The notes under the pieces are model-generated. The model worked only from the letters and a program-made list of their open reading frames with translations, was not told the DNA's origin and did no database searches. This document shows positions 14,421 to 52,300 of a stretch of 64,000 nt of DNA, in pieces. How positions within the stretch are numbered: the stretch's first letter is position 1; every line of letters starts with the position of its first letter. Made by a program: the position numbers and the translations under genes. Source of the stretch: Candidatus Heimdallarchaeota archaeon (GTDB taxonomy: Archaea > Asgardarchaeota > Heimdallarchaeia > Heimdallarchaeales > Heimdallarchaeaceae); assembly GCA_019057375.1 (NCBI GenBank), contig DXJF01000045.1:24316-88315 (forward strand). Direction: 5' to 3'.

Positions 14421-14538
14421 GATTTTTCTGTGAAATACTTTGTTATAATATTTTCTAAGAACTACAACTATTTTGAAAATCTTATGTCAATAGAGTCTAG
14501 AGTTAAAATAAAGAAAAAGAGGAAAAAGGAAAAATAGA

Positions 14539-18704: not shown

Positions 18705-18705
<1 letters not shown>
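18205..18705 (-). CDS. NuoJ-like subunit (166 aa)
   Basis: LNAMFLAWIQLIVYGGGFTALFVVVVAL matches the NuoJ/ND6 core (FLA..Q..VY.G....LF.FV). Confidence 0.7.
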
Positions 18706-28100
<9,395 letters not shown>

Positions 28101-35042: not shown

Positions 35043-36446
35043 TTGAAAGCTATCCACAAGAGAAGGGACTTGGAAATATTGAGTACCGATAACAACCTTT
35101 TGTCAAAAACACTAAATGAAGTCAAAACAAGGTTGTATCTAGATGATCGTCGTCGACTCTCTCCAATATTGTTGGGAATAATTGGTAGCTTTTCAATGAC
35201 AATTTTCATGTCCTATGTTGGTTTACACTTGAAAGACATTAATACTGTAGTCTGGATGATAACACTCATTCTTGCGTTAAGAAATATCTACCAGATATTT
35301 CTAAGAGTTCCATTAGGACATTTTTCACAAATGATTGGTAGAAAACCTTTGTTAATTGCTGGAATTGGTTTTTATACAATTAGCTTGTTTTTTCTTGCTA
35401 TAGCATCTCACTGGAGTTTAGTAATTGTAGCAATAACATTCTTGGCTATAGGAATGTCTTGCTTCTGGCCAGTAATATTTGCATATATTTCTGATGTTGA
35501 AGAAAATAAGAATCTAGGTAAAGTACAAGGGAGATTGTTCCAAGGAACAGATTTGGGGGCTATATCAGGAGCTTTGTTAGCTTTTCTTCTGTTAAAAAGG
35601 TCAAAAATAACTATTTCAACAATTTTACCATTATCAAGCATAAACATCATCAATATACCAGAAATAACATATCCCCTGTCTCAATTACGTATTCTTTTCT
35701 CTTGGGGGGCAGGTATTTCTCTAGTTGGAGTAATTGCATTAGCTTTCTTCATGCCTGAAGTACTGAAAAAGGAAGACCGACTACAAGTAGATTCCAAATT
35801 GAAAGCTTTGGGCGATGCTTTTGTCTCTATGTACCAGTCATTACTCATAGTTACAAAGCAGAAAAAACTAAGTTTCATTTACGTTATACAATTGGCGATA
35901 GCTTTTCTAGAATATATTGTTACGGCTTTCTTTCCTTTCCTAATTATAGCCAAGGGATTCTCTTATGATGTAGTTGCACAAATTGCTTGGATTACATCTT
36001 GTGTGTTGATTTTTTTCAAACCTTATCTAGGTCGATTAGTTGATAAATTAGGGTACAGAGGACCAATATTTGTTACTCTTCTTCTTTCTTCTAGTATGCT
36101 TATCCTAATGGTATTTGTGAGCTCCTTATCTTGGTTGATTGTTGTATACATGGTATATAGTGCTAGTAGCTTAACAAGTTATATTGGTGTGAATACAGGA
36201 ACGACAATGGAATCAAAAAATACCCAACGTGGCATAGCTTTAGGAGCTTTAGGATTTTATGTATCCTTGTCGAGGTCGGCCTCAACATTAAGCTTAACAC
36301 CTGTTTGGGGAAAACTAGGCATTGAAGCAGTTTTTATAACAACTTCAATTATTATTATTTCAGCTGCAATAACTATTTATCTGATATATTATTTAATAGG
36401 AAACGGAAACAAAATAAAAATAAAAAGAAAGAAAGGTTATTCCTAA
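35043..36446 (+). CDS. MFS-type transporter (about 12 TM)
   Basis: Hydrophobicity pattern with a loop 2-3-like motif GHFSQMIGRKP and GRLVDKLGYRGP in the second half. Start uncertain (TTG in the ORF track). Confidence 0.7.
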   Translation: MKAIHKRRDLEILSTDNNLLSKTLNEVKTRLYLDDRRRLSPILLGIIGSFSMTIFMSYVGLHLKDINTVVWMITLILALRNIYQIFLRVPLGHFSQMIGRKPLLIAGIGFYTISLFFLAIASHWSLVIVAITFLAIGMSCFWPVIFAYISDVEENKNLGKVQGRLFQGTDLGAISGALLAFLLLKRSKITISTILPLSSINIINIPEITYPLSQLRILFSWGAGISLVGVIALAFFMPEVLKKEDRLQVDSKLKALGDAFVSMYQSLLIVTKQKKLSFIYVIQLAIAFLEYIVTAFFPFLIIAKGFSYDVVAQIAWITSCVLIFFKPYLGRLVDKLGYRGPIFVTLLLSSSMLILMVFVSSLSWLIVVYMVYSASSLTSYIGVNTGTTMESKNTQRGIALGALGFYVSLSRSASTLSLTPVWGKLGIEAVFITTSIIIISAAITIYLIYYLIGNGNKIKIKRKKGYS

Positions 36447-36919
36447 GCCGGAACTTCTTTTTTCTCGACACCAATAAGATCTTCTTTTAATTTACCTAGT
36501 AGTGTAGCAATAGCTGCAACAATGTTCTCAGGTCTTGGAGGACAACCATAAACCCAAGCGTTTATAGGAAGAACATGATCAATACCACCTAAAATAAATG
36601 GGCATTCTTGGAATACTCCACCAGTAGTACAGCAGTTTCCTACAGCAACTACAAACTTGGGGAGAGGCATTTGTTCATAAACACGTTTGACACGTTCAGC
36701 GACTTGAGCAGTGACGGGGCCAGTGATGACGAGGACGTCAGCCTGACGGGGAGTACCACGAAGGGTGATACCATATTGTTCAAGGTCATGACGAGGAGTG
36801 AGAGCGTCTACAATCTCGATATCGCAACCATTACAGCCACCAGCATTCATATGTATAATCCATGGGGAACGAAGGGCACAATTAACACCAAATTTCTTTA
36901 ACCAACCCATTTTAAGCAC
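36443..36919 (-). CDS. Group-4 [NiFe] hydrogenase small subunit (NuoB/HycG/MbhJ-like, 158 aa)
   Basis: Proximal [4Fe-4S] ligands in GGCNGC, GNCCTTGG and GCPPRP. Confidence 0.9.
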   Translation of the reverse strand: MLKMGWLKKFGVNCALRSPWIIHMNAGGCNGCDIEIVDALTPRHDLEQYGITLRGTPRQADVLVITGPVTAQVAERVKRVYEQMPLPKFVVAVGNCCTTGGVFQECPFILGGIDHVLPINAWVYGCPPRPENIVAAIATLLGKLKEDLIGVEKKEVPA

Positions 36920-37382
36920 CTCGGAATTCCACTATTTCTTTTATTCTTTTTCCGCCAGCTTCGATAAGATCACTTAGTTTCTTATCAGCTACATCACCTT
37001 TGTAACTACCTTTGGCAACAAGCATTTCATAGTCTTGATGAATATTGAATGAGAATAGTGAAACAGATAAGTTAGGATCTCGATCAATATGAATCGCGTC
37101 AACGGGGCAATAAGTTTGGCAGTGGCCGCACCACATGCATTGTGGTTTTAATAGCCATATAATTCCATTCTCTTTGTCATCTTTCTCAATTTCTATACAA
37201 TGTGTTGGACAAACTTTCACACATGTTCCACACATAATACATCTATCTTCGATAATTCTTGGAATTGTTCTGATATCTTCTGGTGGTGGATTTTCCGCAA
37301 TCCTCTTTAGAACATGTTTTGTCACAGGTCCTTTTGCGTGGTTTTTTAGGGCTTCTCCGCCCATTACTAATACTTTTTTCAT
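36912..37382 (-). CDS. 2x[4Fe-4S] ferredoxin-type subunit (NuoI/HycF/MbhN-like, 156 aa)
   Basis: CIMCGTCVKVCP and CMWCGHCQTYCP. 8-nt overlap with the small subunit gene. Confidence 0.85.
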   Translation of the reverse strand: MKKVLVMGGEALKNHAKGPVTKHVLKRIAENPPPEDIRTIPRIIEDRCIMCGTCVKVCPTHCIEIEKDDKENGIIWLLKPQCMWCGHCQTYCPVDAIHIDRDPNLSVSLFSFNIHQDYEMLVAKGSYKGDVADKKLSDLIEAGGKRIKEIVEFRGA

Positions 37383-37394
37383 CTTCTTTTCACC

Positions 37395-38651
37395 TCAGAA
37401 AAATGGCCTATTATATTTCTTGGCCTTTATAGCTTTTCTAGCAAATTCGTCTTGATTCAGAATCATTTTTTCTCCTGTTACTTCGTTAATTATCATAACT
37501 CTGTTTGTACAGGAGAAACATGGATCGTAGCTTCTCAGAATTACTGGCATATCAGCCACATATTCCCCATCCATCCTCTTAAGGGTAGCGTCAATATTGC
37601 CTAGAGATGGTGCTCTTATTTTGTATCTTTCTGGTGTATCTGTACCATTAGCTATACCATAATGAACATCCTCACCTCTTGGTGCTTCACCTCTTGCAAA
37701 ATAGCTTCCTTCTGGGATTCTTTGTTTAACTCTTGCTAATAGTTCACCTTGAGTAGATTCAAGTTGTTCCAGAATCTGTTTACATATTTGTAGAGATTCT
37801 AAAGTTTCATCAAGCCTAACCAAAGTAGTTGCTAAGATGTCTCCTTCATTATAATAAACCAAATTCCAATCAATTTTATCGTATAATTCATATGGAGTTG
37901 CTTTTCTTACATCAAAAGGCAATCCTGAACCTCTTCCAGTAGGTCCATTGGGGGTTACTTTCTTTGCATCCTCTTTAGTTAAGACACCTACATCTTCTAA
38001 ACGATTTCGAATTGATGCTTCCTCAGTGAATACTTTCTTATGGTATTCAACTTGTTTTATTAGTTTGTCCAACATAGGTTGTGCTCTATCTGCTTTTTCT
38101 TTTGGAATGTCTCTTTTTACACCACCAGGAAGCATCAAAGCTGGATTGACTCTATTTCCACTAAAATCTTCTACAATATCCATGATAATTTCACGGTCTC
38201 TCCATGTAACATGTAACATTGTATCAAATCCTGCATCATGAGCAAGTATTCCATACCAAAGTATGTGTGAATGAATACGTTCTGCTTCTAAACTGAACAT
38301 ACGGATTAATCTTGCTCTTTCGGATATTTGATCCTCAACACCTGCAAGTTTGTCAACTAATCGAACATAAACATTTTGATGAACAGCACTACAGATACCA
38401 CAAGCTCTGGGAATTAACATGGTGTTTTGTCTCCATGTTTTATTTTCCATTGCTTTTTCAATCCCTCTGAGATTGAAACCTATTCTGATATCAGCTTCAA
38501 CCACTCTTTCTCCTTTCAAATGAATAATAAAGTGAGCTGGTTCTTCTGCCCAGGGGTGTTGTGGTCCGATAAATATGTGATGATCGGCTCCAGGGGGAGC
38601 ATCGCTACCATCTGTTAAAGTTCTAAATCTGGATCGGTATTGTTCTGTCAT
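37395..38651 (-). CDS. Group-4 [NiFe] hydrogenase large (catalytic) subunit (NuoD/HycE/MbhL-like, 418 aa)
   Basis: N-terminal NiFe-ligand motif RACGICSAVH (C84, C87) and C-terminal DPCFSCTNR (C378, C381), followed by a 34-residue tail after R384. Confidence 0.92.
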   Translation of the reverse strand: MTEQYRSRFRTLTDGSDAPPGADHHIFIGPQHPWAEEPAHFIIHLKGERVVEADIRIGFNLRGIEKAMENKTWRQNTMLIPRACGICSAVHQNVYVRLVDKLAGVEDQISERARLIRMFSLEAERIHSHILWYGILAHDAGFDTMLHVTWRDREIIMDIVEDFSGNRVNPALMLPGGVKRDIPKEKADRAQPMLDKLIKQVEYHKKVFTEEASIRNRLEDVGVLTKEDAKKVTPNGPTGRGSGLPFDVRKATPYELYDKIDWNLVYYNEGDILATTLVRLDETLESLQICKQILEQLESTQGELLARVKQRIPEGSYFARGEAPRGEDVHYGIANGTDTPERYKIRAPSLGNIDATLKRMDGEYVADMPVILRSYDPCFSCTNRVMIINEVTGEKMILNQDEFARKAIKAKKYNRPFF

Positions 38652-39175
38652 TATTTAGCCTCCTCCAAACCTTCTTTTGTAATTTTCATTGTAATTTCCT
38701 TGATCTGTTCCCAACCATACTCTTTTCGCATTGGTTTTACATCATCTGGCCATCTTTCAGGTAAGATTAACCTTTGCAGGAATGGGTGGTTTTCAAAGTA
38801 AATACCATAAAAATCATAAATTTCTCTTTCATAATAATCAGCAGCAACAAAAAATTCCAGCATACTTGGAGTTTTTGGTTTGTTTTTGTCGATTTTAGTT
38901 ATAATGAAATTTATCGGTACTTCCCTAAATTCATCTTCTATTCTGTGTTGAATATGATAACAAACGTTGAATTCATCATCTTTCTCAACACCTGATATTG
39001 TTGATAGGTGATATATGCCTGCATCTTCACGCAGTATTTTCATAAGTTCAAAGGCATTTGTCACGTTACTCATAACGTCAAAGTGACCTTCTTCAACTTT
39101 TATCACTTCTTCAACAAGGTTTCCAGGTAAAGTTACATTTAAAATTCCTTCTAATTCTTTGAGTACATCACTCAT
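38651..39175 (-). CDS. NuoC/30-kDa-subunit-like hydrogenase component (174 aa)
   Basis: Signature ADYYEREIYDFYGIYFENHP. 1-nt overlap with the large subunit gene. Confidence 0.85.
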   Translation of the reverse strand: MSDVLKELEGILNVTLPGNLVEEVIKVEEGHFDVMSNVTNAFELMKILREDAGIYHLSTISGVEKDDEFNVCYHIQHRIEDEFREVPINFIITKIDKNKPKTPSMLEFFVAADYYEREIYDFYGIYFENHPFLQRLILPERWPDDVKPMRKEYGWEQIKEITMKITKEGLEEAK

Positions 39176-39276: not shown

Positions 39277-39960
39277 TTAACCTTTGATAAGAAGATAATC
39301 GTTCCCTTTGAATTTTTCAGGAATTTCCTGTAAATACCAGCCTCTAGCTTGTAAAACTAGAAGGTTTCCAAACACTATTGGTGTCAAACTTTGATTTCCT
39401 ACTCTGAAATTATCTTCTGAAACCCATTCTCCTTCTTCTTCTTTGAAATCAATCCATTCATTGATAGAAAGAAATCTTCCTGTATATCGAACTCCATAGG
39501 CTTTCTCTAACATTTCTGGAACCGACTCAATTATGTTTTGAGCTATGTCTTCACTCTCATTTTCAAGACCCTCAATTATTCCTTCTAGTACTGCTGTCTT
39601 AGTTTCAAAGTCATGTGCCATCTTGGGTTTTATTGGTGGAAAATGTTCAATAGATGGAAATATGGCTTCTTCTTCACAGAGAAAAACTCTTTCAGTTATA
39701 TTTCTAAACTTATATCCTCTTACAACTAAAATGATAATATATGCAATATCAATATTGTTGATTTTGTATTTTCTCTTAACTAGTTTTAATCCTTCTACAA
39801 CGCTTATTTTACTTTTAGCTTCTCCCGTACATTCATAATCATCAAAAATATCTGGGATAGATCGCATTAGATTTGTTAAAAAGAACTGATTTGTTTTATT
39901 GGAAAAGTCTATGAAATTTCTCAAAATTAGGGCGTTAGCATCATTTTCTCTGAGCACCAT
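39277..39960 (-). CDS. Hypothetical protein (227 aa)
   Basis: ORF track; lies between the hydrogenase catalytic operon and hypC; no family recognised. Confidence 0.45.
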   Translation of the reverse strand: MVLRENDANALILRNFIDFSNKTNQFFLTNLMRSIPDIFDDYECTGEAKSKISVVEGLKLVKRKYKINNIDIAYIIILVVRGYKFRNITERVFLCEEEAIFPSIEHFPPIKPKMAHDFETKTAVLEGIIEGLENESEDIAQNIIESVPEMLEKAYGVRYTGRFLSINEWIDFKEEEGEWVSEDNFRVGNQSLTPIVFGNLLVLQARGWYLQEIPEKFKGNDYLLIKG

Positions 39961-40028: not shown

Positions 40029-40250
40029 TCAGCTACTGAGTATCTCATCCCAGAGTTTCAAATCTTCTTTAGCTTGTTCTGGATCAAGTTTCTGAATTAT
40101 GAAACCAGTGTGAACTAAAACATAATCACCTATATCTAGAGATTCTTCAAGAAGAGTAGTATCAGCTTCGCGTCTAACACCAGTGATGTCAACCATTACT
40201 CTCTTATCATTCAGTATCTCACATACCAATCCAGGAATTGCCAAACACAT
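40029..40250 (-). CDS. hypC: Hydrogenase maturation chaperone HypC
   Basis: The N-terminus MCLAIPG is the family hallmark (essential Cys2), so the start is set at 40250 rather than the ORF-track 40259. Confidence 0.92.
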   Translation of the reverse strand: MCLAIPGLVCEILNDKRVMVDITGVRREADTTLLEESLDIGDYVLVHTGFIIQKLDPEQAKEDLKLWDEILSS

Positions 40251-40536
40251 AAGTCTCACATCATCATTTTTACTTCATTAATTAACTGTAGCCAACTGAG
40301 AGTTAAAAAACTTATCCAATTTTGCTAGAAGCGCTATGAAGTATTAAGGGTGCTTCTTAGAGAGGTGAAGAAAAACTCTTTTTTATAAATTTTTTTTCTA
40401 CATTTTTTTTCGAAATATGAACAATTAAATGATTTTTACCGGGTTTATATATCGTTTTAAAGATTAGATGGTGAGAGATTTGAGAACATAATCAGCACAA
40501 CTAGCACAGGTTCACACTCACTCTAGCTCAGCTAAG

Positions 40537-42420
40537 GTGATGAGAAACTATCAAGTGGTGTTGCAGTGTTTTGACCAGTCCCAACGAGAAGAGATTAATC
40601 AAAGAATAAGGAAATTAGAAGAAAGACAAGTTTTGCTTCTCACTCCTTTTGTTGTTAAGAAAGCTGTAGACCTCTACCGAACCAACCCGAAAGAAAGATT
40701 CTTCATTCGCAAACTAGGTAAAGCTGTGGGGATGAACCCTAATATAGCAGAGAGTGCTTTCCATTGGCTTCATATAGCTGTTAAAGGGAAGATTGACAAA
40801 GAGAAGAAAGTGCAAGGAATGCTCAACTTTCTACTAAAAAATCCTCAACAGTTGATAGAATGGCTGATTTTTGGTCGTTCTCCCTATACTGAACGTAGTC
40901 TGGAAAACTATTGGAAATTGAAAAGAAGATATATTATCAATCTTCTTACCAATTCCAGAACACAAGTGGACTCATTTTGGAGAAAGAAGAAGAAAACGAT
41001 ATATACATCTGCAACTCTTAAGCTAAACTACTTGCTCCCAACTTGTACTCAGCAAGACGTTCTCCAAGCAATCGACGATGCGTTGTTTTACTACACTCAC
41101 AAATTTTCTACACTTCAACAGCTTAATAATAATCAGCAAGCATTTCTCAACAAAATCAAACTGTTAAAGAAAGAACAAACAACAGTTGTTCCCTTCCTCA
41201 CTTCTTGGATCAACAGTCCTCAATCTTCTCGATGGAAAAGTCTCAAAGAACTCTCAGAACAACTAGCTCAAGTGCTAGGAAAGCCTACCCGAAAACTCTT
41301 TTCAGCTGTTAGGTTGATAGTCGTTTTCACACTCTTTGATTATTACATGCAGAGTATCCCTCAGTTAATCAAGGCTCTCCCAGCAGAGAAAATTGTTCCC
41401 CCATCATTTAAACGAAAAAAGAAAGGAAGATTACCAATCAAACTATTAATGAAAAAAGATTATGTTATTGCCCGTGAAGGGAATGCACAAGAATTAACCA
41501 AACAAGTAAAGAAGCAAGGAATTACTGTATTTAGTTTTCCGCAACAAGGTAAAAAGAGATTAACTGCTCAAGTTCGTTTTCCGCAGAAAATAGTAGAATA
41601 TTTGCACAATGGAGCTAATATCAAAGTTTTCCAAGTAAGCAGTGGAAAAGCACCAAGCTATAAACCTCGAGTAGATGTGGTGCTGGAAGGAACACATGAT
41701 TGTTTCCATTCTTCTACACTTCTTCACAGTTATCTTCCCCAGATTCCTGTAAAGAAAGCTTCTGTCCTTGGGATAGATATTAACCGCTTAGGACAATATA
41801 TGGTAACATTTAATGTTCCTGTTCCCCTTCCCCCAGATTTACTAGCTTTAGCAAAACACTATGATCACCTCAGCAAAAAGGTAATAGATGAACTTAATCG
41901 AGGGTATCTTCGCAAACGAAAGGAGTATGATACTTTTGAAAGCTGTAAACTCAAGGGAGAACTCAACCGTGTCTATAATCGTCGCAGTCGAATCCTTCGA
42001 GAAATCACTCGCCTTCTTCCTCATTTTCTTGCAGCAGTGTTAGTGAAGAAACGCAGTCAAGCTCTTAAAATTGAACGTCTTACTGCTGATGCTACTGGTA
42101 CTAAAGGAGCATTAGCTAAAGCCATCCTTACCATGCCCGACAGTTTGTTTATCTACAAAAAAGCTGTTTGGTTGGCTTCTTTGGAATTAGGTTATGACGT
42201 GGAGTTAGAAGTCGTTAATCCTCATTACACTAGTTCTCTTCACCATGGTTGTGGTGGAGTGCTTGCTCGAGTTAAAGGTCAATATGACTATGCTCCATGT
42301 AAGAAATGTGGTAAAAAAGTCAATACTCATTTCAATGCAGCTCATAACATCGCTTCCCTTTCTGGTACCCTACTCCCTTATGATCATTTTCCCTCAACGC
42401 ACGTGAGGGGATCCAATTAA
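40537..42420 (+). CDS. TnpB/Cas12-like RuvC-fold protein with zinc ribbon and long N-terminal extension (627 aa)
   Basis: RuvC-I VLGIDINR (D414), RuvC-II LKIERL (E513), NPHYTSS, zinc ribbon HHGC...CKKCG, RuvC-III-like NTHFNAAHNIA. GTG at 40537 followed by ATG at 40540. Confidence 0.8.
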   Translation: MMRNYQVVLQCFDQSQREEINQRIRKLEERQVLLLTPFVVKKAVDLYRTNPKERFFIRKLGKAVGMNPNIAESAFHWLHIAVKGKIDKEKKVQGMLNFLLKNPQQLIEWLIFGRSPYTERSLENYWKLKRRYIINLLTNSRTQVDSFWRKKKKTIYTSATLKLNYLLPTCTQQDVLQAIDDALFYYTHKFSTLQQLNNNQQAFLNKIKLLKKEQTTVVPFLTSWINSPQSSRWKSLKELSEQLAQVLGKPTRKLFSAVRLIVVFTLFDYYMQSIPQLIKALPAEKIVPPSFKRKKKGRLPIKLLMKKDYVIAREGNAQELTKQVKKQGITVFSFPQQGKKRLTAQVRFPQKIVEYLHNGANIKVFQVSSGKAPSYKPRVDVVLEGTHDCFHSSTLLHSYLPQIPVKKASVLGIDINRLGQYMVTFNVPVPLPPDLLALAKHYDHLSKKVIDELNRGYLRKRKEYDTFESCKLKGELNRVYNRRSRILREITRLLPHFLAAVLVKKRSQALKIERLTADATGTKGALAKAILTMPDSLFIYKKAVWLASLELGYDVELEVVNPHYTSSLHHGCGGVLARVKGQYDYAPCKKCGKKVNTHFNAAHNIASLSGTLLPYDHFPSTHVRGSN

Positions 42421-42425
42421 ACGAC

Positions 42426-42453
42426 GGTTAAAAGCCTTTTGGCAAGTTTAACC
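42426..42453 (+). other. Stem-loop 6 nt after the tnpB-like stop codon (candidate right-end / guide-RNA scaffold hairpin, or terminator)
   Basis: GGTTAAA-A-GCC-TTTT-GGC-AAG-TTTAACC: a 7-bp plus 3-bp stem with a UUUU loop. Confidence 0.4.
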
Positions 42454-42484
42454 AAGTTTCATAACGTGTGTTTTCATCTAGCAA

Positions 42485-43588
42485 CTAATCTTCCCAAATT
42501 ATCTCTTCGTAAGTAGCTGCTACATTACATGTACCTTCATGACTGACCATACATGCCCCAATTGGATGATCAGGTCTACAAGCTTTATTAAATAATTTAC
42601 ATTTATGTGGTTTAGATTTTCCAACCAGAATTTCATCACAAATACAACCACTATGAAGATCTGTAACCTCAAGCTCAGGGATTTCATATTTCTTCTTAGC
42701 ATCAATATGACTATACTTATCAGCTATCTCATGACCTGTATCTGGCCAAACACCCAAACCTCTCCACCTTGCATCAGAAACAACATAAGCTTCTTCCATT
42801 GTTTTGAGAGCTGCAACATTACCTTCGTATCTTACATAACGTTTGTACATATTATCAACTCTTGAGGTATTTTCATTGAATTGCTTCAACAGTGCATAAA
42901 TTCCAACAAGGATATCTACTGGTTCAAAACCAGCTACAGCAACAGGAAAATTATATTTTTCAGGAATAAAATCATAAGGTTTGGCGCCAATAATTGTAGA
43001 AACATGACCCGGAGCTAAAAATCCTTGAAATTCTAAATCATCTCTTTGCAATAAAAGTTCCATTGCTGGGGGAACAAGCTTATGTGATGAGTAGATACTG
43101 AAATTGGGAAGTGTAGTACGGACAACTTCAGCAGCTGTAACACAAGAGGTAGTTTCAAAGCCAACACTGAAGAAAAGAACATCTCTGTCAGGTGTTTGTT
43201 CTGCAAGTTTGATAGCATCAGATACACTATAAACTACGCGAACATCAACACCCCTTCCTTGAGCCTGATATAGAGACTCTTTAGAACCAGGGACACGCAT
43301 CATATCACCAAAAGTGGCAATAATAACATTATGATTATCAGCAATCCAAAGAACTTCATCAACATCTTGGGCACTAGAGACACAAACGGGACATCCAGGA
43401 CCAGCTATCAAGTCTATTTCTTTTGGTAATAATGAACGCAATCCTGCTTTTACTAAGTCATGTTCATGGGTTCCACAAACATGCATAATACGTACTTTTC
43501 CACCTATTTGTTCTGTCAGTTGTTTTATCTTCTTAATTATGGCATCAACTAGTTCTTTATCTCGATACTTTTGTGTTGGTTCTGACAT
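42485..43588 (-). CDS. hypD: Hydrogenase maturation protein HypD (367 aa)
   Basis: HVCGTHEH, GPGCPVCV and a C-terminal Cys cluster (CKLFNKAC ... GACMVSHEGTC). Confidence 0.93.
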   Translation of the reverse strand: MSEPTQKYRDKELVDAIIKKIKQLTEQIGGKVRIMHVCGTHEHDLVKAGLRSLLPKEIDLIAGPGCPVCVSSAQDVDEVLWIADNHNVIIATFGDMMRVPGSKESLYQAQGRGVDVRVVYSVSDAIKLAEQTPDRDVLFFSVGFETTSCVTAAEVVRTTLPNFSIYSSHKLVPPAMELLLQRDDLEFQGFLAPGHVSTIIGAKPYDFIPEKYNFPVAVAGFEPVDILVGIYALLKQFNENTSRVDNMYKRYVRYEGNVAALKTMEEAYVVSDARWRGLGVWPDTGHEIADKYSHIDAKKKYEIPELEVTDLHSGCICDEILVGKSKPHKCKLFNKACRPDHPIGACMVSHEGTCNVAATYEEIIWED

Positions 43589-43722: not shown

Positions 43723-45219
43723 TTGGTTGTTTTGAGTATAAAGACATTTATTCTCAGTAAAAAGGTAATATTATATTCTTTACTATTGATTTTGATAAGC
43801 TCAATAGTTATTACTACTGTTTTCCTAACTATCTCACCATTCTATACTTCAACAGGACCTATTGAAATAGAATCAGACTCAGAACTAAAAGATCATTCTG
43901 TTAGAGGTACTGGAACAAAAACTGACCCCTACAAAATTGAAAGGTATAAGATTGTCTCCAGTGGAGATTTTGGAATTCGAATTTCTGGTACAACAAAATA
44001 TTTCGTTATTACAAATTGTTACATTGATGTGAATGCATACGGGATCTCTATATATAATACCGCAAAAGAAACCGTCTTAATAACAGACAATACTTGCGTT
44101 AGTTCGTATTATGGAATTTGGCTATACAATACTACGGGAACAATTGTTTCAGATAATGTATGTAAAAAGAAAAAGGAGGGAAAGTATATTTGGTTGTTTG
44201 AGATGCAATTTGGGGGGATTTACTTGAATAGAAACACAAATACCACCATTTCTAACAATTCTTGTCTTCAAATGAAAGATTTTGGTATATTCATGGAATC
44301 TTGTAATGAAATGCTAGTTGTAGAAAATACTTGTAAAGATGTAGCTGGGTATGGGATTTATGCTACAAGGTCTTCTAATGTAACAATTACAAATAATTTG
44401 GTAAAGAACAATCTAGGTGCAGGAATTGGATCAGCTAATAATGAATTTATCATAATTGCAGAAAATAAATTCAAGAACAATGGTTTCACAATAAATGATA
44501 TGTGGCAGCTTGGTTATGATTTTTCTACATTGCAAGTGTTCGATAATACGATAAATGGAAAAAAATTGGGCTTCTTCTTTAATTTAACATCTAGTGTCAT
44601 AGAAGATTCAGACTATGGTCAAATCATTCTCTGTGAATGTACAAATGTAACGGTTAAAAATCAGGTTTTTGAGAATCTTCAAGCAGGTATATCCTTAATT
44701 AATTCTACCAGACTTTGTATAACTCAGAATCAATTTATCAATTGTGGAAATGGAATTTACTCTATTTTTACATCTAATTCAAATTTTACTAATAATATTT
44801 GTAATAACAACTCTAATGCAGGCATATTTCTAGATTACTATTGTTCTTCTATATTGATAGACTCTAATGACTGCAATAATAATAGATATGGGATTTATTT
44901 GTGGTATTCTAGTCTCTGTAATATGACATACAATTTGCTTGTCGAGAACACCAGGTATGGGGTATATATTAATATGAATTCAAAAAGCAATAGCGTACAT
45001 CATAATACATTTGTCGAAAATCATCAAGAAATTGTTCATTATTTTGAGAGTTCTCAAGCTATTCAATGGGAGCTTGATTATCCTAATTATTGGTATGATA
45101 TAATGTCAAATGAAGGTAACTTTTGGTCAGACTGGAGTGGTACTGGATACTATAAGATTGATTGTCTAGATGGGGATTTGTATGATTTCTATCCCTTGTC
45201 AGAACCTACAAGAAGTTAA
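43723..45219 (+). CDS. Right-handed parallel beta-helix (PbH1) repeat protein with N-terminal TM/signal anchor (498 aa)
   Basis: Repeated ~22-residue turns (NNxCxxNxxGIxLxxSxNxTIxxN). N-terminal hydrophobic helix. TTG start. Confidence 0.7.
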   Translation: MVVLSIKTFILSKKVILYSLLLILISSIVITTVFLTISPFYTSTGPIEIESDSELKDHSVRGTGTKTDPYKIERYKIVSSGDFGIRISGTTKYFVITNCYIDVNAYGISIYNTAKETVLITDNTCVSSYYGIWLYNTTGTIVSDNVCKKKKEGKYIWLFEMQFGGIYLNRNTNTTISNNSCLQMKDFGIFMESCNEMLVVENTCKDVAGYGIYATRSSNVTITNNLVKNNLGAGIGSANNEFIIIAENKFKNNGFTINDMWQLGYDFSTLQVFDNTINGKKLGFFFNLTSSVIEDSDYGQIILCECTNVTVKNQVFENLQAGISLINSTRLCITQNQFINCGNGIYSIFTSNSNFTNNICNNNSNAGIFLDYYCSSILIDSNDCNNNRYGIYLWYSSLCNMTYNLLVENTRYGVYINMNSKSNSVHHNTFVENHQEIVHYFESSQAIQWELDYPNYWYDIMSNEGNFWSDWSGTGYYKIDCLDGDLYDFYPLSEPTRS

Positions 45220-45347
45220 ATTCTACTTTTTCTCTTCTTTCTATTAGTTCTAACAACAAATTATGGCTTGGAAATATCCTTTAAGTATTGATAAATTAGA
45301 TAAATAGATGATTTCTTCTCTTGGACAAAATGTCCTACTTGTTGTTC

Positions 45348-45572
45348 TCAATATATTCCATATTCTTTATCAAGTTCTCGTAGAAGAGCACTCACCTCAG
45401 GACTGGTGGAATCTATCCCCGCTTGTTCTAAGATTTTTGCAAGATGCTCGATGTCAAATGATGCTATTGCTTCATGATATGTTTGCTTAACGAATTCTCT
45501 AATTTGCTCATCCATTTTCTTTTCCTCTATTATAGATGATAGAAGAAATTTCTTTGGTATATTCATTTTCAC
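45348..45572 (-). CDS. Hypothetical small protein (74 aa)
   Basis: ORF track; helical composition; no family recognised. Confidence 0.35.
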   Translation of the reverse strand: MKMNIPKKFLLSSIIEEKKMDEQIREFVKQTYHEAIASFDIEHLAKILEQAGIDSTSPEVSALLRELDKEYGIY

Positions 45573-45665
45573 ATTTTACGAAATTTCTTAGTTTATCAAT
45601 AAAACAACACTTACGCTGCTTGAAGAAGCAAACTATAAATATTAAAAACGACAGAATTTTATATT

Positions 45666-46646
45666 ATGATAAAAAAACAGCTTGCGTTTTATATTCTTCT
45701 TGCGATAACTTTTTCGTTTACTATTCAGCCTATTTTTTCAGAAGCTAATACTCCAGAACATGATCAAGATTATTATATTGACCATCTTACTGGTGTTCAT
45801 ATAGCAATGTATAATGGTTCTGGTTCATGGAGTTATGGGAAAAAAGCTGTTTCTAGACTGTTTGATTGGGCAGGATGTACATATGAGAATGTTTCAGGTC
45901 AGAATATAATTGATGGGTGTTTAGAAAATTTTGACATTCTCTACTGGCCAGGAGGAGATTATGTTTCTTATTTGGGAGAAATGGATTTGGAAGGTAAAGC
46001 AGCTGTACAGGAGTTCATTTCCAGCGGTGGAGGATATTTGGGTATCTGTGCAGGAGCTTATTATGCCTGTGATTATATGGTGTGGATGGATGATGATAGC
46101 TTCCCTCCTCCTGATTACAAGGTTGAGGGAGATGAACTTAACCTTGATCTCTTAGAGGGAGTAGCTTGGGGACCAATTTTCGAGTTAGCCGAAAGACCTG
46201 AACCTGGGTATGCTATGGTTCAAGTTAATATCAATCATAACCACCCTATTACCAGCAACCTTCCAGACACCATGCAAATTATCTATATTGGTGGTCCATA
46301 CTTTGTTCTTCATGCGGATGCAGAGCAGGATATATCTATCTTAGGTACATATGATTTAACTGAGCAAAATGCAATAGCTGCTACCACATATGGGCAAGGA
46401 AGGGTTTTTCTAATAAGTCCGCATGCAGAAGTAGAGGAAGATAGCAACAGAGATGGTTATGAACCTTTTGACGAACTTCCTGATGAAGGGTCAGATTGGC
46501 CTTTACTTTACAATGCACTAGAATGGTTATCATTTAAGACTCTAGAAGATACAAGTAAATCACATTCTTCATTTCTATTCACAAATCTAGCTATGATAAT
46601 AATTGTATTATGGCTAAAAAAATCAAGAAGACAAGGAAAAAAATAA
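45666..46646 (+). CDS. Secreted class-I glutamine-amidotransferase-like (BPL_N-like) domain protein with C-terminal TM anchor
   Basis: Signal peptide. ILYWPGGD ... GGGYLGICAGAYYA nucleophile-elbow-like motif. C-terminal FLFTNLAMIIIVLWL followed by KKSRRQGKK. Confidence 0.5.
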   Translation: MIKKQLAFYILLAITFSFTIQPIFSEANTPEHDQDYYIDHLTGVHIAMYNGSGSWSYGKKAVSRLFDWAGCTYENVSGQNIIDGCLENFDILYWPGGDYVSYLGEMDLEGKAAVQEFISSGGGYLGICAGAYYACDYMVWMDDDSFPPPDYKVEGDELNLDLLEGVAWGPIFELAERPEPGYAMVQVNINHNHPITSNLPDTMQIIYIGGPYFVLHADAEQDISILGTYDLTEQNAIAATTYGQGRVFLISPHAEVEEDSNRDGYEPFDELPDEGSDWPLLYNALEWLSFKTLEDTSKSHSSFLFTNLAMIIIVLWLKKSRRQGKK

Positions 46647-46774: not shown

Positions 46775-47326
46775 ATGAAAATTTTAGTAACATATTATAG
46801 TGTGACAGGGAATACTAGGAAAATTGCTGAAGCAATTTATGAAACTTCATCAGAAGATCATGAGGTTCACTTGAAAGATATGAATGACATATCACTAAAG
46901 AATTTTGCAAATTATGATTTAGTTTTCTTAGGTTCTGCATGTCATGACTCTGATTTAGCTCATCCTGTTTTGCAACTATTTGAAAAAACGCCCTCTTCCT
47001 CGGAGTTTAAACTTGCTGGTTTTGTTACTCATGCCTCTTATACTCCTGATAAGGGAGAATATGAAAAAAGCATGTATGACAAATGGGCTGGAAGATGTAT
47101 AAAATCCTTCGAGAGTTTTGCTCACAATAACAAAATCAAATTCCTAGGGTTCTTCAATTGTATGGGAATACCTTCTCCACCTATAGAGAAATTCATTCAT
47201 GATCAGATTGTTACTGAAGAGGAACAATGGGCTATATATTCTGAAGTTATCAAAAAACATCCTGATGAAAATGACATAGAGAATGCTAAGAAATTTGCTA
47301 AGAAAATACAAAAAATGTGTGAATAA
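46775..47326 (+). CDS. Flavodoxin-family protein (183 aa)
   Basis: N-terminal FMN phosphate-binding pattern KILVTYYSVTGNTRKIAEAI and LVFLGSACH. Confidence 0.75.
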   Translation: MKILVTYYSVTGNTRKIAEAIYETSSEDHEVHLKDMNDISLKNFANYDLVFLGSACHDSDLAHPVLQLFEKTPSSSEFKLAGFVTHASYTPDKGEYEKSMYDKWAGRCIKSFESFAHNNKIKFLGFFNCMGIPSPPIEKFIHDQIVTEEEQWAIYSEVIKKHPDENDIENAKKFAKKIQKMCE

Positions 47327-47348: not shown

Positions 47349-48341
47349 CTATATTTTCTGGTATTCCTCTGGAATATTTACCGTAAACTTACACTCTAAA
47401 GCACCAGTAAGAGGTGTTTCAATAGGTTCAACTTTAACTGGTTGGTCAAAAACTATGTCCCAATATTGTTTAAAGAATCCTGCACTACAATTACAGAAGT
47501 TAGAAGAAATTTCCTTTTCATCTCCCTTTTTAATTGCTCCTCGCACCCATGCGCAATAGCAACTGTAGTATCTTTTCATTCTTTCATCTTCAGTATTGAG
47601 AAATCTTTCCATCTGATAAGGTATTTTTGTAACAATTATTTTATTTTCTTTCCTTATTCCTGGAGTAATAGTTCTACTATTTTTTACATAGTTGACAACT
47701 TCATCATTGACATATTGAGCATATTCTAATGTTCCCTCTTCTGCATGTTTTTCTAGTCTTTCAACAAATTCTTGTTTCTTTATTTTCAGGAATTCATCAA
47801 TATCACCAATTCTCAAGAAATCTTCTCTGTCTTTCTTAATTGGTTCAAGTGGTCTTCCATGTAAACATGGTGATAATATCTCTACTGTTTTTTCTTCTCC
47901 TATTCTTTCTTCCATTCTTCTCATTATTTTTTTTGTAAACTCTGGCTTTTCATCTGGATGAACTCCCAGAACAGGAATTGTGAGGTCTTTAAATATCTCA
48001 TCTCTTATTTTTTCATCAAAGTGCTCTGCTATTCTTGTATAAAGATTGTCCATTGCATTGTAACCTTCAACTATGTCAATGACCTCGATGATGTAATCAT
48101 ATTTTTTTAAGAAATTTGCATAATTAATTATAGCTCTTAACAAATTTAGAATTGTATCTTCGTTTTTGTTTACTAAAGACTCTGTATACTCAATTATTTT
48201 CCCCTCAGGTATTGAATCAATATCACTACCCTCTTTCTTAAGAAATTCTTGTAGCTCTAGTAATCTATCAATAAATGTTGATACTCGTTCTTCCTTGGAA
48301 TTATTTTTCAATAAATACTCTCTAAAAGCTTGTTGATTCAA
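47349..48341 (-). CDS. Hypothetical protein with C-terminal Cys cluster (330 aa)
   Basis: ORF track. C-terminal YYSCYCAWVRG ... FCNCSAGF ... ECKF suggests a metal site. No family recognised. Confidence 0.45.
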   Translation of the reverse strand: MNQQAFREYLLKNNSKEERVSTFIDRLLELQEFLKKEGSDIDSIPEGKIIEYTESLVNKNEDTILNLLRAIINYANFLKKYDYIIEVIDIVEGYNAMDNLYTRIAEHFDEKIRDEIFKDLTIPVLGVHPDEKPEFTKKIMRRMEERIGEEKTVEILSPCLHGRPLEPIKKDREDFLRIGDIDEFLKIKKQEFVERLEKHAEEGTLEYAQYVNDEVVNYVKNSRTITPGIRKENKIIVTKIPYQMERFLNTEDERMKRYYSCYCAWVRGAIKKGDEKEISSNFCNCSAGFFKQYWDIVFDQPVKVEPIETPLTGALECKFTVNIPEEYQKI

Positions 48342-48479: not shown

Positions 48480-49226
48480 CTATTTTTTTCTATATGCTTT
48501 GACGCTTGAACCTATCATTCCTAAGAATGCTAAGCCAAATATTAATGCAATACTTGAGTAGGGTGTTCCAGTAGTTTGTGGTATTTCACAAATGCACATG
48601 TTATCAAATTCATCAACCCAACCATTGTTTGGTGCGATGTCAACAGTTGTAGAATTAGATGTATTAGCGACACCTTGGATAATATAACTAGTTCCTAAAG
48701 GTTGTTCTCTATGAATTGCTCCATCAATATCAAAGGTAATGTCATTTCCTGAAATAACCACAACATCTAGATTGGGATTAGATCCAACCCAGTTATTTCC
48801 ATCCCAATAAAAAGTACCTTCAACTTTTGCGCTACCATCTGATGTAAGGTAATAACGAAAAGCGCTGATATATGAATTATTTATCCAGTGGTCACCATTC
48901 CTGCGACAATCAAAATGTGCTACATACTCATAGAAATCTGTACTCCAAGTCTCTGTATCAGGATTGGTATCGTGCATACTTGTATCAATCCAAATATTGT
49001 AAAATCGCCAATTATTTACACCACTATCTTTATAGTAAGGTTCCTCAGCTAAAGTAAGTTGTAAATCTGTTTTAGAAATGGTCATGTTTATTATGTCAAA
49101 ATAAGATTGAGAAGCATCACCTATAGTATCCGTTTCCCATCCTGCATATGTTTGAGTAGTATTAGGTAAAGTTACGAAAAATAGTGTTGTGATAAACATA
49201 AAGATGATAATACTTAGCTTCTTCAT
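48480..49226 (-). CDS. Secreted, C-terminally membrane-anchored protein (248 aa)
   Basis: Signal peptide MKKLSIIIFMFITTLFFV. C-terminal IALIFGLAFLGMIGSSV followed by KAYRKK. Confidence 0.55.
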   Translation of the reverse strand: MKKLSIIIFMFITTLFFVTLPNTTQTYAGWETDTIGDASQSYFDIINMTISKTDLQLTLAEEPYYKDSGVNNWRFYNIWIDTSMHDTNPDTETWSTDFYEYVAHFDCRRNGDHWINNSYISAFRYYLTSDGSAKVEGTFYWDGNNWVGSNPNLDVVVISGNDITFDIDGAIHREQPLGTSYIIQGVANTSNSTTVDIAPNNGWVDEFDNMCICEIPQTTGTPYSSIALIFGLAFLGMIGSSVKAYRKK

Positions 49227-49292: not shown

Positions 49293-49760
49293 TTAATTTG
49301 TTTTTTCATTATCTGCGAGATTAATTCTTTCTATCAATAACTCTGCAAATTCCTCAGCTGCAACTTTGCATTCCTCAGATAGTGGGGTGTCAAAATATAG
49401 ATCCTTTGGTTGTATTCCCACATACATTGTAATTAGATCTGGAACAGCTGGTTTGAGAAACTCTTCAAGCATTGTTAAAGACAATGTGTGAGTAGAAAGA
49501 TGAAAGCCACTAGAAACAGCTTCTTTAGGAAAAATTGCAATAGCTCCAGGTATTTCTTTCATATCTGCAGCATCCAAAATTATGATTCTGTCTGGTTCTA
49601 GTCTTCTAAATTTCCCAAGAAAATGTTCTGGAACGTTTTCACAATAGAAATTTGTTACCCACTCTGGAAGGTTTGCTTCTTGAAGAATAGAAAGAACATA
49701 CAATCCAACTGCATCATCTCCGTTATCTTCATTTCCAACTCCAATAATTGCTAATTTCAT
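49293..49760 (-). CDS. [NiFe] hydrogenase maturation endopeptidase (HycI/HybD family)
   Basis: IIGVGNEDNGDDAVG (consensus GxGNxxxxDDGxG), with later Asp (ILDAADM) and His (HLSTHTLSL). Start set at MKLAIIG (49760); the ORF-track start at 49886 would add 42 N-terminal residues. Confidence 0.8.
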   Translation of the reverse strand: MKLAIIGVGNEDNGDDAVGLYVLSILQEANLPEWVTNFYCENVPEHFLGKFRRLEPDRIIILDAADMKEIPGAIAIFPKEAVSSGFHLSTHTLSLTMLEEFLKPAVPDLITMYVGIQPKDLYFDTPLSEECKVAAEEFAELLIERINLADNEKTN

Positions 49761-49950
49761 AGCCTCTTTTAGAAATTCATCGATAGCTTGAATAAATTCT
49801 TGAGTAAATTGTTCATCTGCTGATTCAGACATTAATGCTAAACCAAAATAGCTGTTCATAAGTTCTTCTTTAGGTAAATAAATCAAATTGACATATTAAC
49901 CAAAAATAGCAATGTTTAAATTGGTCTTACCTCTTTTGCTTACTAGAAAC

Positions 49951-50274
49951 TGAGTCGATAGCAACGACTAGCCGGGGACCTAGGGCGTCCTTGTACCAGA
50001 AGCGCTCTATATGCTGGGGTGAATGCTGTTGCTGAGGCTTCGTTGAGGTTGATACGCCTTAATCGGATAGCGTTGAAGCGCTGCCCTATGAGACTGTGTA
50101 CACTGGAGGCGATTTCGGAGGAAATCGTTAGAAAGGTTGAAGTCAAAATGGGCCAGGTACGGAAGTAAGCAGCTCTAAGACTGATATGTGGTGCCCATAG
50201 CAAGCGGCGTGGAGCTTATGGTTAAGAAACGGCTTCTAAAATGGTGTCGAACAACAGGTCGCTATGATCGGCTC
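49951..50274 (+). ncRNA. Signal recognition particle RNA (archaeal 7S RNA, ~324 nt)
   Basis: GC-rich island in AT-rich DNA. Helix-8 core GGCCAGGTAC-GGAA-GTAAGCAGC matches the universal SRP motif (CAGG...GGAA tetraloop...AGCAGC). The 5' GAGTCGATAGC pairs with the 3' GCTATGATCGGCTC. Confidence 0.8.
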
Positions 50275-50356
50275 AGTTGTCTACTATTTTCCCGAAAAAC
50301 CTATTAATGACTATTCTCTTCTTGAAAGGATTTATAATTTCATAGAAGTGCCAATA

Positions 50357-52300
50357 ATGAAAAATGTTTCAGACGAGAAATTTGAAGCAATTGAGAATAT
50401 GTTTCTTACTGGTAGATATCATGAGGCACTACAAGAAATAGATTTTATAGAACAAAGAAGAGATGTAACGTCTGAGGATAGAGTCTTTTGTTATAGATTA
50501 AAAGCACAATTGTATAGTATTTTTCAACCATTTACTAAGGCAATAGAATTTGGTGAAAAAGCTGTTAAAAACAGTGTGGAAATTGGTAATGAATTCCTTA
50601 TTATTGATTCAGCATTTCATCTTGGTAGATCTTTATGTATGACTGGAAATCTTAACGTTGGAGTCGAGTATTTAGAATTAGCCCAAAAAACCCTTGATTC
50701 AATTAACAATCAAGAAACACCAGAATACCTCAAAAGGAAAGCCATACTACTAGGTCACTGTAAGGGGTGGAGAGATGGTTTTGATTTTCTGTTGGAGAAG
50801 TTGACTCAAGCATTAAAAATAGTAGAAGAAATAGAATGGGATTATGGAAGAGTAAATATTCAGTATGAGTTAGCTTGTCTTTATCAGTGGTATGGAAAAT
50901 ATTCCCAAGCTATCACGCAGTTTGAAATTTGCTTAGAACTTGCTGAGGAATTTGATGTTTTTGAACAAAAAATGGGTTGTTTATCAAGCTTGGGAACAAT
51001 TTATCTTGACATGGGTGAATTAGAAACATCGCTTGACTATTTAATGAAAAGTCTACCTTTTGCTGAAAAAATGGAATCAGCATACGCGTTATCATTTATT
51101 CTTGGGGATATCGGTCTCATACACTGGCAAAAACACGATTTAGATGAAGCTGTAGAATATTATACTAAGTGTACTCAAATGCTTCTAGAAACAGGAAACT
51201 CACACCATCGGAGATATTCTTGGATACTTTTTCGATTGATTCTCGTTTTACTAGAACAAAATAAGTTTAAAAAAGCTAAAGAAAATCTAGAAAAAATAAA
51301 AGAAATATCTGATTTCCAGAGTTACAGAAAGCAACACCTTAGTCATAAAATCTACAAATTAAGTAAAGCGATTATTCTTAAAGCAATTTCATATGAAAAT
51401 GATTTAAATGAAATAGTTGATCTACTCAATGAAGTTGCATATGATTCTCTCATTCATAATGAAATGAATAAGATAGCTCTATTTCATTTGTGTGATTTGT
51501 ACTTTAATAAATTAATAAAGTCAAACGATTTTGAAATTTTAAGTTATATCAAATTGAAGATTAATGATTTAGAAAAGTTAGCTAGAGAGCAAGATTCTTA
51601 CGTTATTCTTGCTGAGGCTTTATTATTCGAATCTCAACTTTCTTTGCTTGAATTAGAAATAGATGAAGCCAAGCTATTATTGAATGATGCACAAAAAATA
51701 GCAGAGGAAAAAGGAATCCATAGACTTGCTAATTTGATTTCTAATGCCCATGACAAAATTATCGAAAACCTTGATCAATGGGGAAATGCTTCTTTGTTGC
51801 TCCCTGATCTCTCTGAAAGATTGGAACTAACGCATATCGAAGATTTACTGTATGATCTAGTTAGGAACAAATTAATCTACAAGGATGTTAAAAAAGAAAA
51901 GGAAAAACCAAATGCATTTCTCATATTAGGTCAAGAAGGTACTATTTTATTTTCAGAAATTCTTAACGAAGATTCCTTTGATACTAACCAAATAGGCTCC
52001 ATTATATCAAAAATTCAAAATGAAGAAATCAAACATGAATGTGCTATGCCGATATTTGAGAGAGTTAAATACAATGGTTATACTATTATCAAAGTGAAAC
52101 ATGGAACTTTCATTTTCAGTTATATTTTTATTGGAAAGTCCTTTTTAGCATCAAGAAAATTTCGAAAATTAGTAAGTGAAGTCCAGAGCTATTCTGAAGT
52201 TTGGAGGAACCTACTACCAAAGTTTGAGAGCAAACAGCAATTAGTACTTGATGACCGCATTCAACTTTCAACATATTTACAGAAGATGTTTTTGGAATGA
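50357..52300 (+). CDS. TPR-repeat protein with C-terminal longin/roadblock-like alpha-beta domain
   Basis: Multiple 34-residue TPR-like repeats (e.g. YGKYSQAITQFEICLELAEEF, GELETSLDYLMKSLPFAEKM, DLDEAVEYYTKC). Start moved to the ATG at 50357 because the ORF-track start (50264) overlaps the SRP RNA. Confidence 0.6.
   Translation: MKNVSDEKFEAIENMFLTGRYHEALQEIDFIEQRRDVTSEDRVFCYRLKAQLYSIFQPFTKAIEFGEKAVKNSVEIGNEFLIIDSAFHLGRSLCMTGNLNVGVEYLELAQKTLDSINNQETPEYLKRKAILLGHCKGWRDGFDFLLEKLTQALKIVEEIEWDYGRVNIQYELACLYQWYGKYSQAITQFEICLELAEEFDVFEQKMGCLSSLGTIYLDMGELETSLDYLMKSLPFAEKMESAYALSFILGDIGLIHWQKHDLDEAVEYYTKCTQMLLETGNSHHRRYSWILFRLILVLLEQNKFKKAKENLEKIKEISDFQSYRKQHLSHKIYKLSKAIILKAISYENDLNEIVDLLNEVAYDSLIHNEMNKIALFHLCDLYFNKLIKSNDFEILSYIKLKINDLEKLAREQDSYVILAEALLFESQLSLLELEIDEAKLLLNDAQKIAEEKGIHRLANLISNAHDKIIENLDQWGNASLLLPDLSERLELTHIEDLLYDLVRNKLIYKDVKKEKEKPNAFLILGQEGTILFSEILNEDSFDTNQIGSIISKIQNEEIKHECAMPIFERVKYNGYTIIKVKHGTFIFSYIFIGKSFLASRKFRKLVSEVQSYSEVWRNLLPKFESKQQLVLDDRIQLSTYLQKMFLE

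Follow-up and report, generated by a model that had tools for sequence, protein, structure and literature searches.

Complex-I-like hydrogenases of the Heimdallarchaeia

The membrane-bound hydrogenase (MBH) of Pyrococcus furiosus is an ion-translocating group 4d enzyme that uses ferredoxin for H2 formation, and its mbh genes, in the order J-K-L-M-N, belong to one operon of 14 genes in which Mrp-type small subunits are also encoded. Hydrogenase complexes have also been described from genomes of the Heimdallarchaeia, the Heimdallarchaeaceae included, where they combine a NuoBCDI arm, without NuoEFG, with a shortened membrane arm of the complex-I-like kind; they are predicted to produce H2 from ferredoxin, and subgroups 4j, 4m, 4p and 4q have been proposed for them (Appler et al., 2024, bioRxiv 10.1101/2024.07.04.601786). 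For Candidatus (Ca.) Heimdallarchaeum, one MBH complex per genome and no terminal electron acceptor pathway are reported (Wu et al., 2022, PMC8813620). Here we describe a stretch of 64,000 nucleotides (hereafter the window) of contig DXJF01000045.1 from the Candidatus Heimdallarchaeota archaeon assembly GCA_019057375.1 (positions 24,316 to 88,315 of the forward strand), in which four genes at 36443-39175 on the minus strand, ordered nuoC-, nuoD-, nuoI- and nuoB-like (C-D-I-B), very probably encode the peripheral catalytic arm of a group 4 [NiFe]-hydrogenase, a membrane-bound, energy-converting enzyme of the Heimdallarchaeaceae complex-I-like type, whose membrane arm is encoded at 14049-20161.

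The enzyme resembles the Heimdallarchaeia hydrogenases of Appler et al. in its taxon, its NuoBCDI arm with an intact Ni-Fe site, its NuoL-type subunit and its possession of fewer antiporter-like subunits than complex I, and its large subunit is 79-81% identical to those of the complete Heimdallarchaeum genomes (81% for Ca. Heimdallarchaeum aukensis and 79% for Ca. H. endolithica). Nothing essential separates it from them, except that here the catalytic and membrane modules lie 16 kb apart and that hypD is parted from hypC by a TnpB-like insertion. What Wu et al. (2022, PMC8813620) annotate as MBH in Ca. Heimdallarchaeum is the same enzyme. The class has already been reported from this lineage, and near-identical sequences are present in public metagenome-assembled genomes (MAGs). 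A preliminary description of the window had left room for a large subunit that belongs to a well-characterised subgroup with membrane partners encoded elsewhere in the genome, and this is largely what we find: the subgroup is in the literature, described from genome data, and the partners are encoded at 14049-20161.

Large-subunit homologues with 75-98% identity, insofar as they are named, come nearly all from MAGs of Candidatus Heimdallarchaeota or Heimdallarchaeaceae, including AB_125 (92%), with one labelled Thorarchaeota. Beyond this clade identity falls abruptly to 50% or less, in the Hodarchaeales, other Asgard forms with fused C and D parts, Bathyarchaeota and various bacteria. A Joint Genome Institute (JGI) contig matches the window with 99.96% DNA identity over 5.1 kb, and the window thus stems from a Heimdallarchaeaceae population that has been sampled publicly.

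The catalytic operon

Pfam scans covered 62 open reading frames (ORFs) of the window, including 61 of the 65 with at least 100 aa (the four skipped overlap longer genes on the opposite strand), and the loci of relatives cover 10 kb on either side of the match. The four minus-strand ORFs of the preliminary description were found where it had placed them:

38651-39175, minus strand: NuoC/MbhK-like peripheral-arm subunit, 174 aa (Pfam Complex1_30kDa, 1.6e-26; NCBIfam NuoC family)
37395-38651, minus strand: [NiFe] large subunit precursor, 418 aa (Pfam Complex1_49kDa and NiFeSe_Hases)
36912-37382, minus strand: NuoI/HycF-like 2x[4Fe-4S] electron-input subunit, 156 aa (Pfam Fer4 families)
36443-36919, minus strand: NuoB/MbhJ-like small subunit with a single [4Fe-4S] site, 158 aa (Pfam Oxidored_q6, 7e-30)

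These genes are operon-like, because their junctions measure only -1, +12 and -8 nt. The large subunit possesses all four Ni-Fe ligands, C84/C87 in RACGICSAVH and C378/C381 in DPCFSCTNR, and exactly 34 residues follow R384, after which a cleavage site is predicted. Motifs and tail are kept in 20 of the 20 close homologues aligned and the cysteines also in 10 of 10 distant ones, and within the clade the tail is nearly invariant. Among solved structures, the best relatives of the large subunit are MbhL of the P. furiosus MBH (6cfw_L, 1.4e-71) and HycE of Escherichia coli hydrogenase 3 (7z0s_E, 5e-55), both of which rank ahead of every NuoD, with the group 3 enzymes Frh/Mvh far behind, and the alignment with HycE extends into the C-terminal tail. 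Both the claim of a true [NiFe]-hydrogenase large subunit, as opposed to a complex-I NuoD, and that of a 34-residue extension after R384 are upheld.

The small subunit matches MbhJ (6cfw_J, 5.3e-49, 169 bits) better than NuoB/PSST (~100 bits), and the alignment with MbhJ spans the same cysteine motifs. These are C29/C32 in the hydrogenase-type motif GGCNGCDIE, C96/97 and C126, ligands for one proximal [4Fe-4S] cluster only. The 2x[4Fe-4S] protein contains two CxxCxxCxxxCP motifs (C48-C58 and C82-C92) and has weak NCBIfam matches to HycF, hydrogenase-4 H and NuoI models, while the matches of the NuoC-like protein in the Protein Data Bank (PDB), to NdhJ, NuoC and MbhK, are weak and mutually similar in score. 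Placement in group 4 is by proxy, the best solved relatives MbhL and HycE being group 4 enzymes; the four Ni-Fe cysteines, the short one-cluster small subunit and the presence of NuoH-like and antiporter-like subunits in the window are all characters of that group.

The homology of the B, C, D, I, H, A, J, K, L and N subunits to those of complex I (Nuo) raises the question of whether the locus encodes a quinone-reducing complex I of the Nuo/Fpo-like kind, with a NuoD that merely resembles a hydrogenase. In NCBIfam the large subunit scores best against NuoD models, though it reaches the cutoff of none, its central 160 residues match Complex1_49kDa, and the L subunit is NuoL-like. We nevertheless regard this explanation as hardly credible at all. 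Instead of a quinone site the enzyme retains the four Ni-Fe cysteines, which are conserved across the clade, together with a cleavable-type tail and a HycI-family protease; its small subunit carries the hydrogenase-type CxxC and matches MbhJ far better than NuoB; and hypC, hypD, hypE and hypF are interleaved with the structural genes. It also has two antiporter-like subunits rather than three, and it lacks an N-module: neither the 62 scanned ORFs nor the genes called at the loci of relatives include NuoE, NuoF or NuoG.

The order of the catalytic genes is that of hycE-hycF-hycG in E. coli hydrogenase 3 (group 4a, hycBCDEFG, PDB 7Z0S), which also shares a homologous C-terminal extension of similar length after DPCxxCxxR and a HycI-type protease. 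HycE is a fusion of NuoC- and NuoD-like parts that are encoded by separate genes in the window, and unlike hydrogenase 3 the window has no HycB, formate dehydrogenase partner or HycH homologue, nor do its membrane genes lie directly upstream of the catalytic genes. The preliminary description had judged the gene order to be unlike mbh and ech; it does differ from both, but it is not novel, as it equals hycE(C/D)-hycF-hycG. Thermococcales Mbh (group 4d) is distinguished from the locus by the window's order C-D-I-B and by its NuoA/J/K-type genes, which replace the Mrp-type set, even though, among solved structures, the P. furiosus enzyme (PDB 6CFW) comes closest for the large, the small and the second antiporter-like subunits.

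The membrane arm

No membrane-subunit gene lies directly beside C-D-I-B in the window, as the preliminary description had reported, but the novelty that this implied is not sustained, since a membrane arm is encoded 16 kb away, directly downstream of hypE-hypF:

19112-20161, minus strand: NuoH/MbhM-like membrane subunit, 349 aa as listed (NADHdh, 2.7e-67)
18705-19184, minus strand: NuoA-like small membrane subunit (Oxidored_q4, weak)
18205-18705, minus strand: NuoJ-like small membrane subunit (Oxidored_q3)
17894-18208, minus strand: NuoK-like small membrane subunit (Oxidored_q2)
16053-17897, minus strand: NuoL-like antiporter-like subunit, 614 aa (TIGR01974, score 435, above cutoff)
14539-16053, minus strand: second (distal) antiporter-like subunit, MbhH/MrpD-like, 504 aa (MbhH 6cfw_H, 3.3e-47)
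14049-14420, minus strand: small hydrophobic protein, annotated DUF8058 in relatives, 123 aa (assigned by synteny and hydrophobic sequence)

In relatives, too, hypF precedes nuoH. The NuoL-like subunit matches E. coli NuoL (3.2e-74, 253 bits) far better than MbhH (96 bits). Its AlphaFold2 (AF2) model (pLDDT 84.7) contains an amphipathic lateral-helix region at residues 542-585 followed by a terminal transmembrane (TM) helix at 592-613, and superimposes on full-length E. coli NuoL with Foldseek TM-scores of 0.80/0.80; the charged residues E143, K232, K356 and K413/E414 are retained. In this the complex differs from the P. furiosus MBH, which is without a lateral-helix region (PMC11291895). The distal antiporter-like subunit is closer to MbhH (165 bits) than to NuoN/M (107-122 bits in PDB matches) and retains E142, K353 and K408. 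The NuoH-like subunit matches NdhA, MbhM and NuoH about equally, and PDB matches do not separate an MBH-like from a complex-I-like origin for the NuoC-, NuoI- and NuoH-like subunits. By these matches and models, the complex is a mosaic, in which the large, small and distal antiporter-like subunits are MBH-like and the L subunit is NuoL-like. A catalytic arm of MBH-like character joined to a complex-I-like membrane arm is precisely the combination that Appler et al. describe for the Heimdallarchaeia.

The NuoA-like ORF as listed has a TTG start, 159 aa and a 73-nt overlap with nuoH; its orthologues have 130-132 aa, and the true start probably lies ~80 nt further downstream.

Gene arrangement in relatives and pairing of the two modules

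Membrane genes adjoin C-D-I-B in at least 13 related loci, where the two modules are either convergent or in tandem. In the convergent layout, hypD-hypC-X-C-D-I-B (X denoting an orphan gene described below) runs towards an opposite-strand set that reads, from the meeting point, DUF8058-N-L-K-J-A-H-hypF; it is found in loci L008, L017, L019, L021, L023 and L024, in partial views in L018 and L033, and also in the complete Heimdallarchaeum genomes (L029 and L030). In the tandem layout (L001 and L035), H-A-J-K-L-N is followed by the flavodoxin-like gene, hypD-hypC-X-C-D-I-B and hycI, and L026, whose upstream end is missing, is probably tandem as well. The split layout of the window, in which B is followed by genes for a major facilitator superfamily (MFS) transporter and thioredoxin and then by gyrA and gyrB, recurs in L005, L006, L012, L014-L016, L025, L027, L028 and L031.

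In L004, the closest relative at the level of 90% clusters, the small-subunit gene is followed by the DUF8058 gene (1756-2627) without N-L-K-J-A-H between them, a fourth arrangement, which suggests breakpoints on both sides of the membrane module.

The split layout could be taken to mean that C-D-I-B encodes a free-standing, soluble four-subunit hydrogenase, a membrane-detached offshoot of group 4, for no membrane-subunit gene adjoins it in the window or in roughly ten related species, and in L032 none is seen within 10 kb. Such an enzyme is very unlikely given the membrane arm in the same window, behind hypE-hypF, and the adjacency of the two modules in the relatives above, which identifies the detachment of the catalytic operon as a lineage-level rearrangement and not as a membrane-free enzyme. 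The two arms also diverge in parallel: identity of the NuoL-like subunit is 62-97% within the Heimdallarchaeaceae and 46% or less outside, the same pattern as that of the large subunit, and the matches to both proteins fall on the same contigs. Split and unsplit genomes carry orthologous subunits (84-91% identity), and a single MBH complex is reported per complete Heimdallarchaeum genome (PMC8813620). In a rough neighbour-joining (NJ) tree of the large subunit, loci of different arrangement types intermingle; a tree of this one protein is too weak for counting independent rearrangements. The two modules are separate units that have been reshuffled repeatedly without leaving their common neighbourhood. 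The assignment of 36443-39175 to the catalytic arm of a membrane-bound enzyme is carried by what is directly seen at these loci, namely the gene identities, the metal-ligand motifs, the conserved tail, the co-localisation of the modules in relatives and their parallel divergence.

A single tRNA-Ser(GCT) gene (24514-24597, minus strand) belongs to the stretch between the two hydrogenase modules.

Maturation genes and the insertions between them

Four hyp genes and a maturation protease are encoded in the window, accompanied by conserved neighbours and an inserted element:

22720-23748, minus strand: hypE
20347-22707, minus strand: hypF
40029-40259, minus strand: hypC, 76 aa (HupF_HypC, 6e-23)
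~40290-42475: TnpB/Cas12f-like insertion, ~2.2 kb, with an ORF at 40537-42420 on the plus strand (Cas12f1-like_TNB domain)
42485-43588, minus strand: hypD, 367 aa (HypD, 4.5e-140)
46775-47326, plus strand: flavodoxin-like gene (Flavodoxin_3/_5)
47349-48341, minus strand: u330, no Pfam family, cytoplasmic, with C-terminal CxC...CxC motifs
48480-49226, minus strand: u248, no Pfam family, signal-like at the N-terminus and with a TM segment at the C-terminus
49293-49886, minus strand: HycI-family maturation endopeptidase, maximal ORF of 197 aa, core from M43 at 49760 (Pfam HycI, 3.5e-11)

The HycI-type protease that had been proposed nearby is placed in the HycI family by Pfam and by TIGR00072 (86.8, above the cutoff of 47.45), and its gene is syntenic with the hydrogenase locus in relatives. 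In the interval originally given for it, 49293-49760, the start is probably set too short: the ORF can reach 49886, and the proteases of relatives are called at 176-186 aa.

The maturation genes had been described as scattered, and their positions are as reported; the scatter itself is explained by insertions relative to relatives. The window and L008 have in common the order rubrerythrin, hycI, u248, u330, flavodoxin-like, hypD, hypC, X, C, D, I, B, into which three insertions have come in the window: a tetratricopeptide repeat (TPR) gene at 50264-52300, NosD-like and BPL_N-like genes at 43723-46646, and the ~2.2-kb TnpB-like element. A comparison of junctions shows that hypD and hypC are spaced by ~50 bp in relatives and that the TnpB-like element parts them in the window. 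Two loci with 94-96% DNA identity (L009 and L010) share this element; beyond it they carry a gene for a beta-lactamase-fold or E2-like protein where the window has hypD, so that the element marks a rearrangement breakpoint. Its ORF, at 627 aa, is long for TnpB, and the C-terminal TNB domain is the only part recognised.

Most related loci have the flavodoxin-like gene too, oriented divergently from hypD, and its product is, speculatively, a possible redox partner or alternative electron donor of the hydrogenase. u330 and u248 are likewise conserved, lying between hycI and the flavodoxin-like gene in relatives, and u248 looks like a membrane-anchored surface protein. Both were considered as divergent HypA/HypB and rejected, as both lack a P-loop and a HypA-type zinc motif.

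Proposed mechanism and its direction

From the genes and motifs described above, we infer which protein donates electrons, in which direction the enzyme works, that it pumps ions and that the tail is cleaved. A low-potential donor, reduced ferredoxin or possibly the flavodoxin-like protein, would feed electrons into the NuoI-like subunit with its two [4Fe-4S] clusters. The small subunit, through its one [4Fe-4S] cluster, would hand them on to the large subunit, whose Ni-Fe site would reduce protons to H2. The catalytic arm is proposed to dock on a membrane arm made of the NuoH/A/J/K-like subunits, the NuoL-like subunit with its lateral helix, the MbhH-like subunit and the DUF8058 protein. H2 formation would be coupled to H+/Na+ export via the NuoH/A/J/K-like core and one or two antiporter-like subunits, which the lateral helix of the NuoL-like subunit may hold. 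For maturation, HypC, HypD, HypE and HypF, all encoded in the window, would build the Fe(CN)2CO centre of the large-subunit precursor; nickel insertion would need HypA and HypB, presumably encoded elsewhere in the genome, and the HycI-family protease would then remove the 34-residue tail after R384.

Group 4 hydrogenases are reversible in principle, and nothing in the sequence fixes the direction of this one. The same architecture could run in reverse in vivo, so that an ion gradient drives H2-dependent ferredoxin reduction, as proposed for Eha, Ehb and Ech of methanogens. We consider this unlikely: for the closest complete genomes, genome-based reconstruction predicts that H2 is produced by fermentation, with no terminal acceptor (PMC8813620), Appler et al. 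also predict proton reduction (bioRxiv 10.1101/2024.07.04.601786), and no H2-consuming anabolic pathway is seen in the window.

Several points weigh against a proton-reducing, ion-pumping membrane-bound hydrogenase matured in this way. The function of the enzymes of this clade is a prediction from their genes. The modules, 16 kb apart, are evidently separate transcription units, and their co-expression is assumed. The conserved tail of the large subunit would also fit a retained structural role, and the score of the protease against the hycI equivalog TIGR00142 (97.2) is below the cutoff of 119.1. HypA and HypB, which the preliminary description had also found to be absent from the window, have no Pfam match among the 62 ORFs and none in a six-frame motif scan, and in relatives neither was seen at distances up to 10 kb from the locus. 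In the distal antiporter-like subunit, the TM7 lysine of MbhH and NuoL/M/N is replaced by Thr225, a replacement seen in 13 of the 13 orthologues that cover the position; its competence in ion pumping is therefore uncertain and may differ from the canonical.

Protein X and the DUF8058 protein

Two small proteins accompany the hydrogenase genes, the DUF8058-type protein listed with the membrane arm and an orphan located between the catalytic operon and hypC:

39277-39960, minus strand: protein X, orphan, 227 aa

Nearly all related loci have the gene for protein X between hypC and nuoC, and of its 55 homologues all named ones come from Heimdallarchaeota or Heimdallarchaeaceae. It has no Pfam or NCBIfam match, a profile search retrieved only 4 representatives among 1.84 billion, and its AF2 model (pLDDT 88) has no fold match in the PDB. 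It is a candidate assembly factor or accessory subunit. A HycH-like assembly factor was considered, and alignment with E. coli HycH by hhalign (probability 0.45%) gave no support.

The DUF8058-type protein of the window has no match in the Pfam scan. In relatives its gene trails the last gene of the membrane arm, and in the convergent layout it lies between both modules; in L029 and L030 hycI occupies its place. It is a possible extra membrane subunit. A further, tentative possibility is that protein X and the DUF8058 protein are unrecognised, lineage-specific hydrogenase components, either an assembly chaperone or extra subunits, of an enzyme whose arms are independent, reshuffled units. Neither protein, nor the threonine at the TM7 lysine position, is mentioned in the accessible parts of the published descriptions of Heimdallarchaeia hydrogenases.

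Base composition at the small-subunit gene

The GC rise that had been noticed at the small-subunit gene is real: 300-bp windows at 36501-37000 reach a GC fraction of 0.45-0.47, compared with a mean of 0.341 (sd 0.036) for the window as a whole. By codon position the gene has GC fractions of 0.62, 0.42 and 0.28, and the third-position value (GC3) is typical for the window. Because the excess sits in codon positions 1 and 2, the peak is one of amino-acid composition and reflects the Gly/Ala/Pro/Arg/Cys-rich, highly conserved sequence of the small subunit; foreign DNA as a source is rejected on the same grounds. Just two such peaks are found in the window, the other, at 49.9-50.3 kb, being an archaeal signal recognition particle (SRP) RNA gene.

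This SRP RNA gene (49958-50265, plus strand) is matched by RF01857 with 94.5 bits (E = 6e-22), just missing the gathering score of 96.5. It lies between hycI and the TPR gene, and the listed start of the TPR ORF (50264) abuts it.

Implications

The analysis adds to the published accounts that the apparently detached catalytic operon results from the rearrangement of a locus whose genes lie together in relatives, that the complex is of mosaic make-up, and that two proteins with close linkage to the locus, the orphan protein X and a small membrane one, may be worth examining as new components. With independent arms, synthesis or regulation of the catalytic arm might be uncoupled from that of the membrane arm. 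An Asgard enzyme of this kind, a hydrogenase whose membrane arm is complex-I-like, bears on the evolution of complex I from hydrogenases and on hydrogen-based syntrophy models of the origin of eukaryotes.

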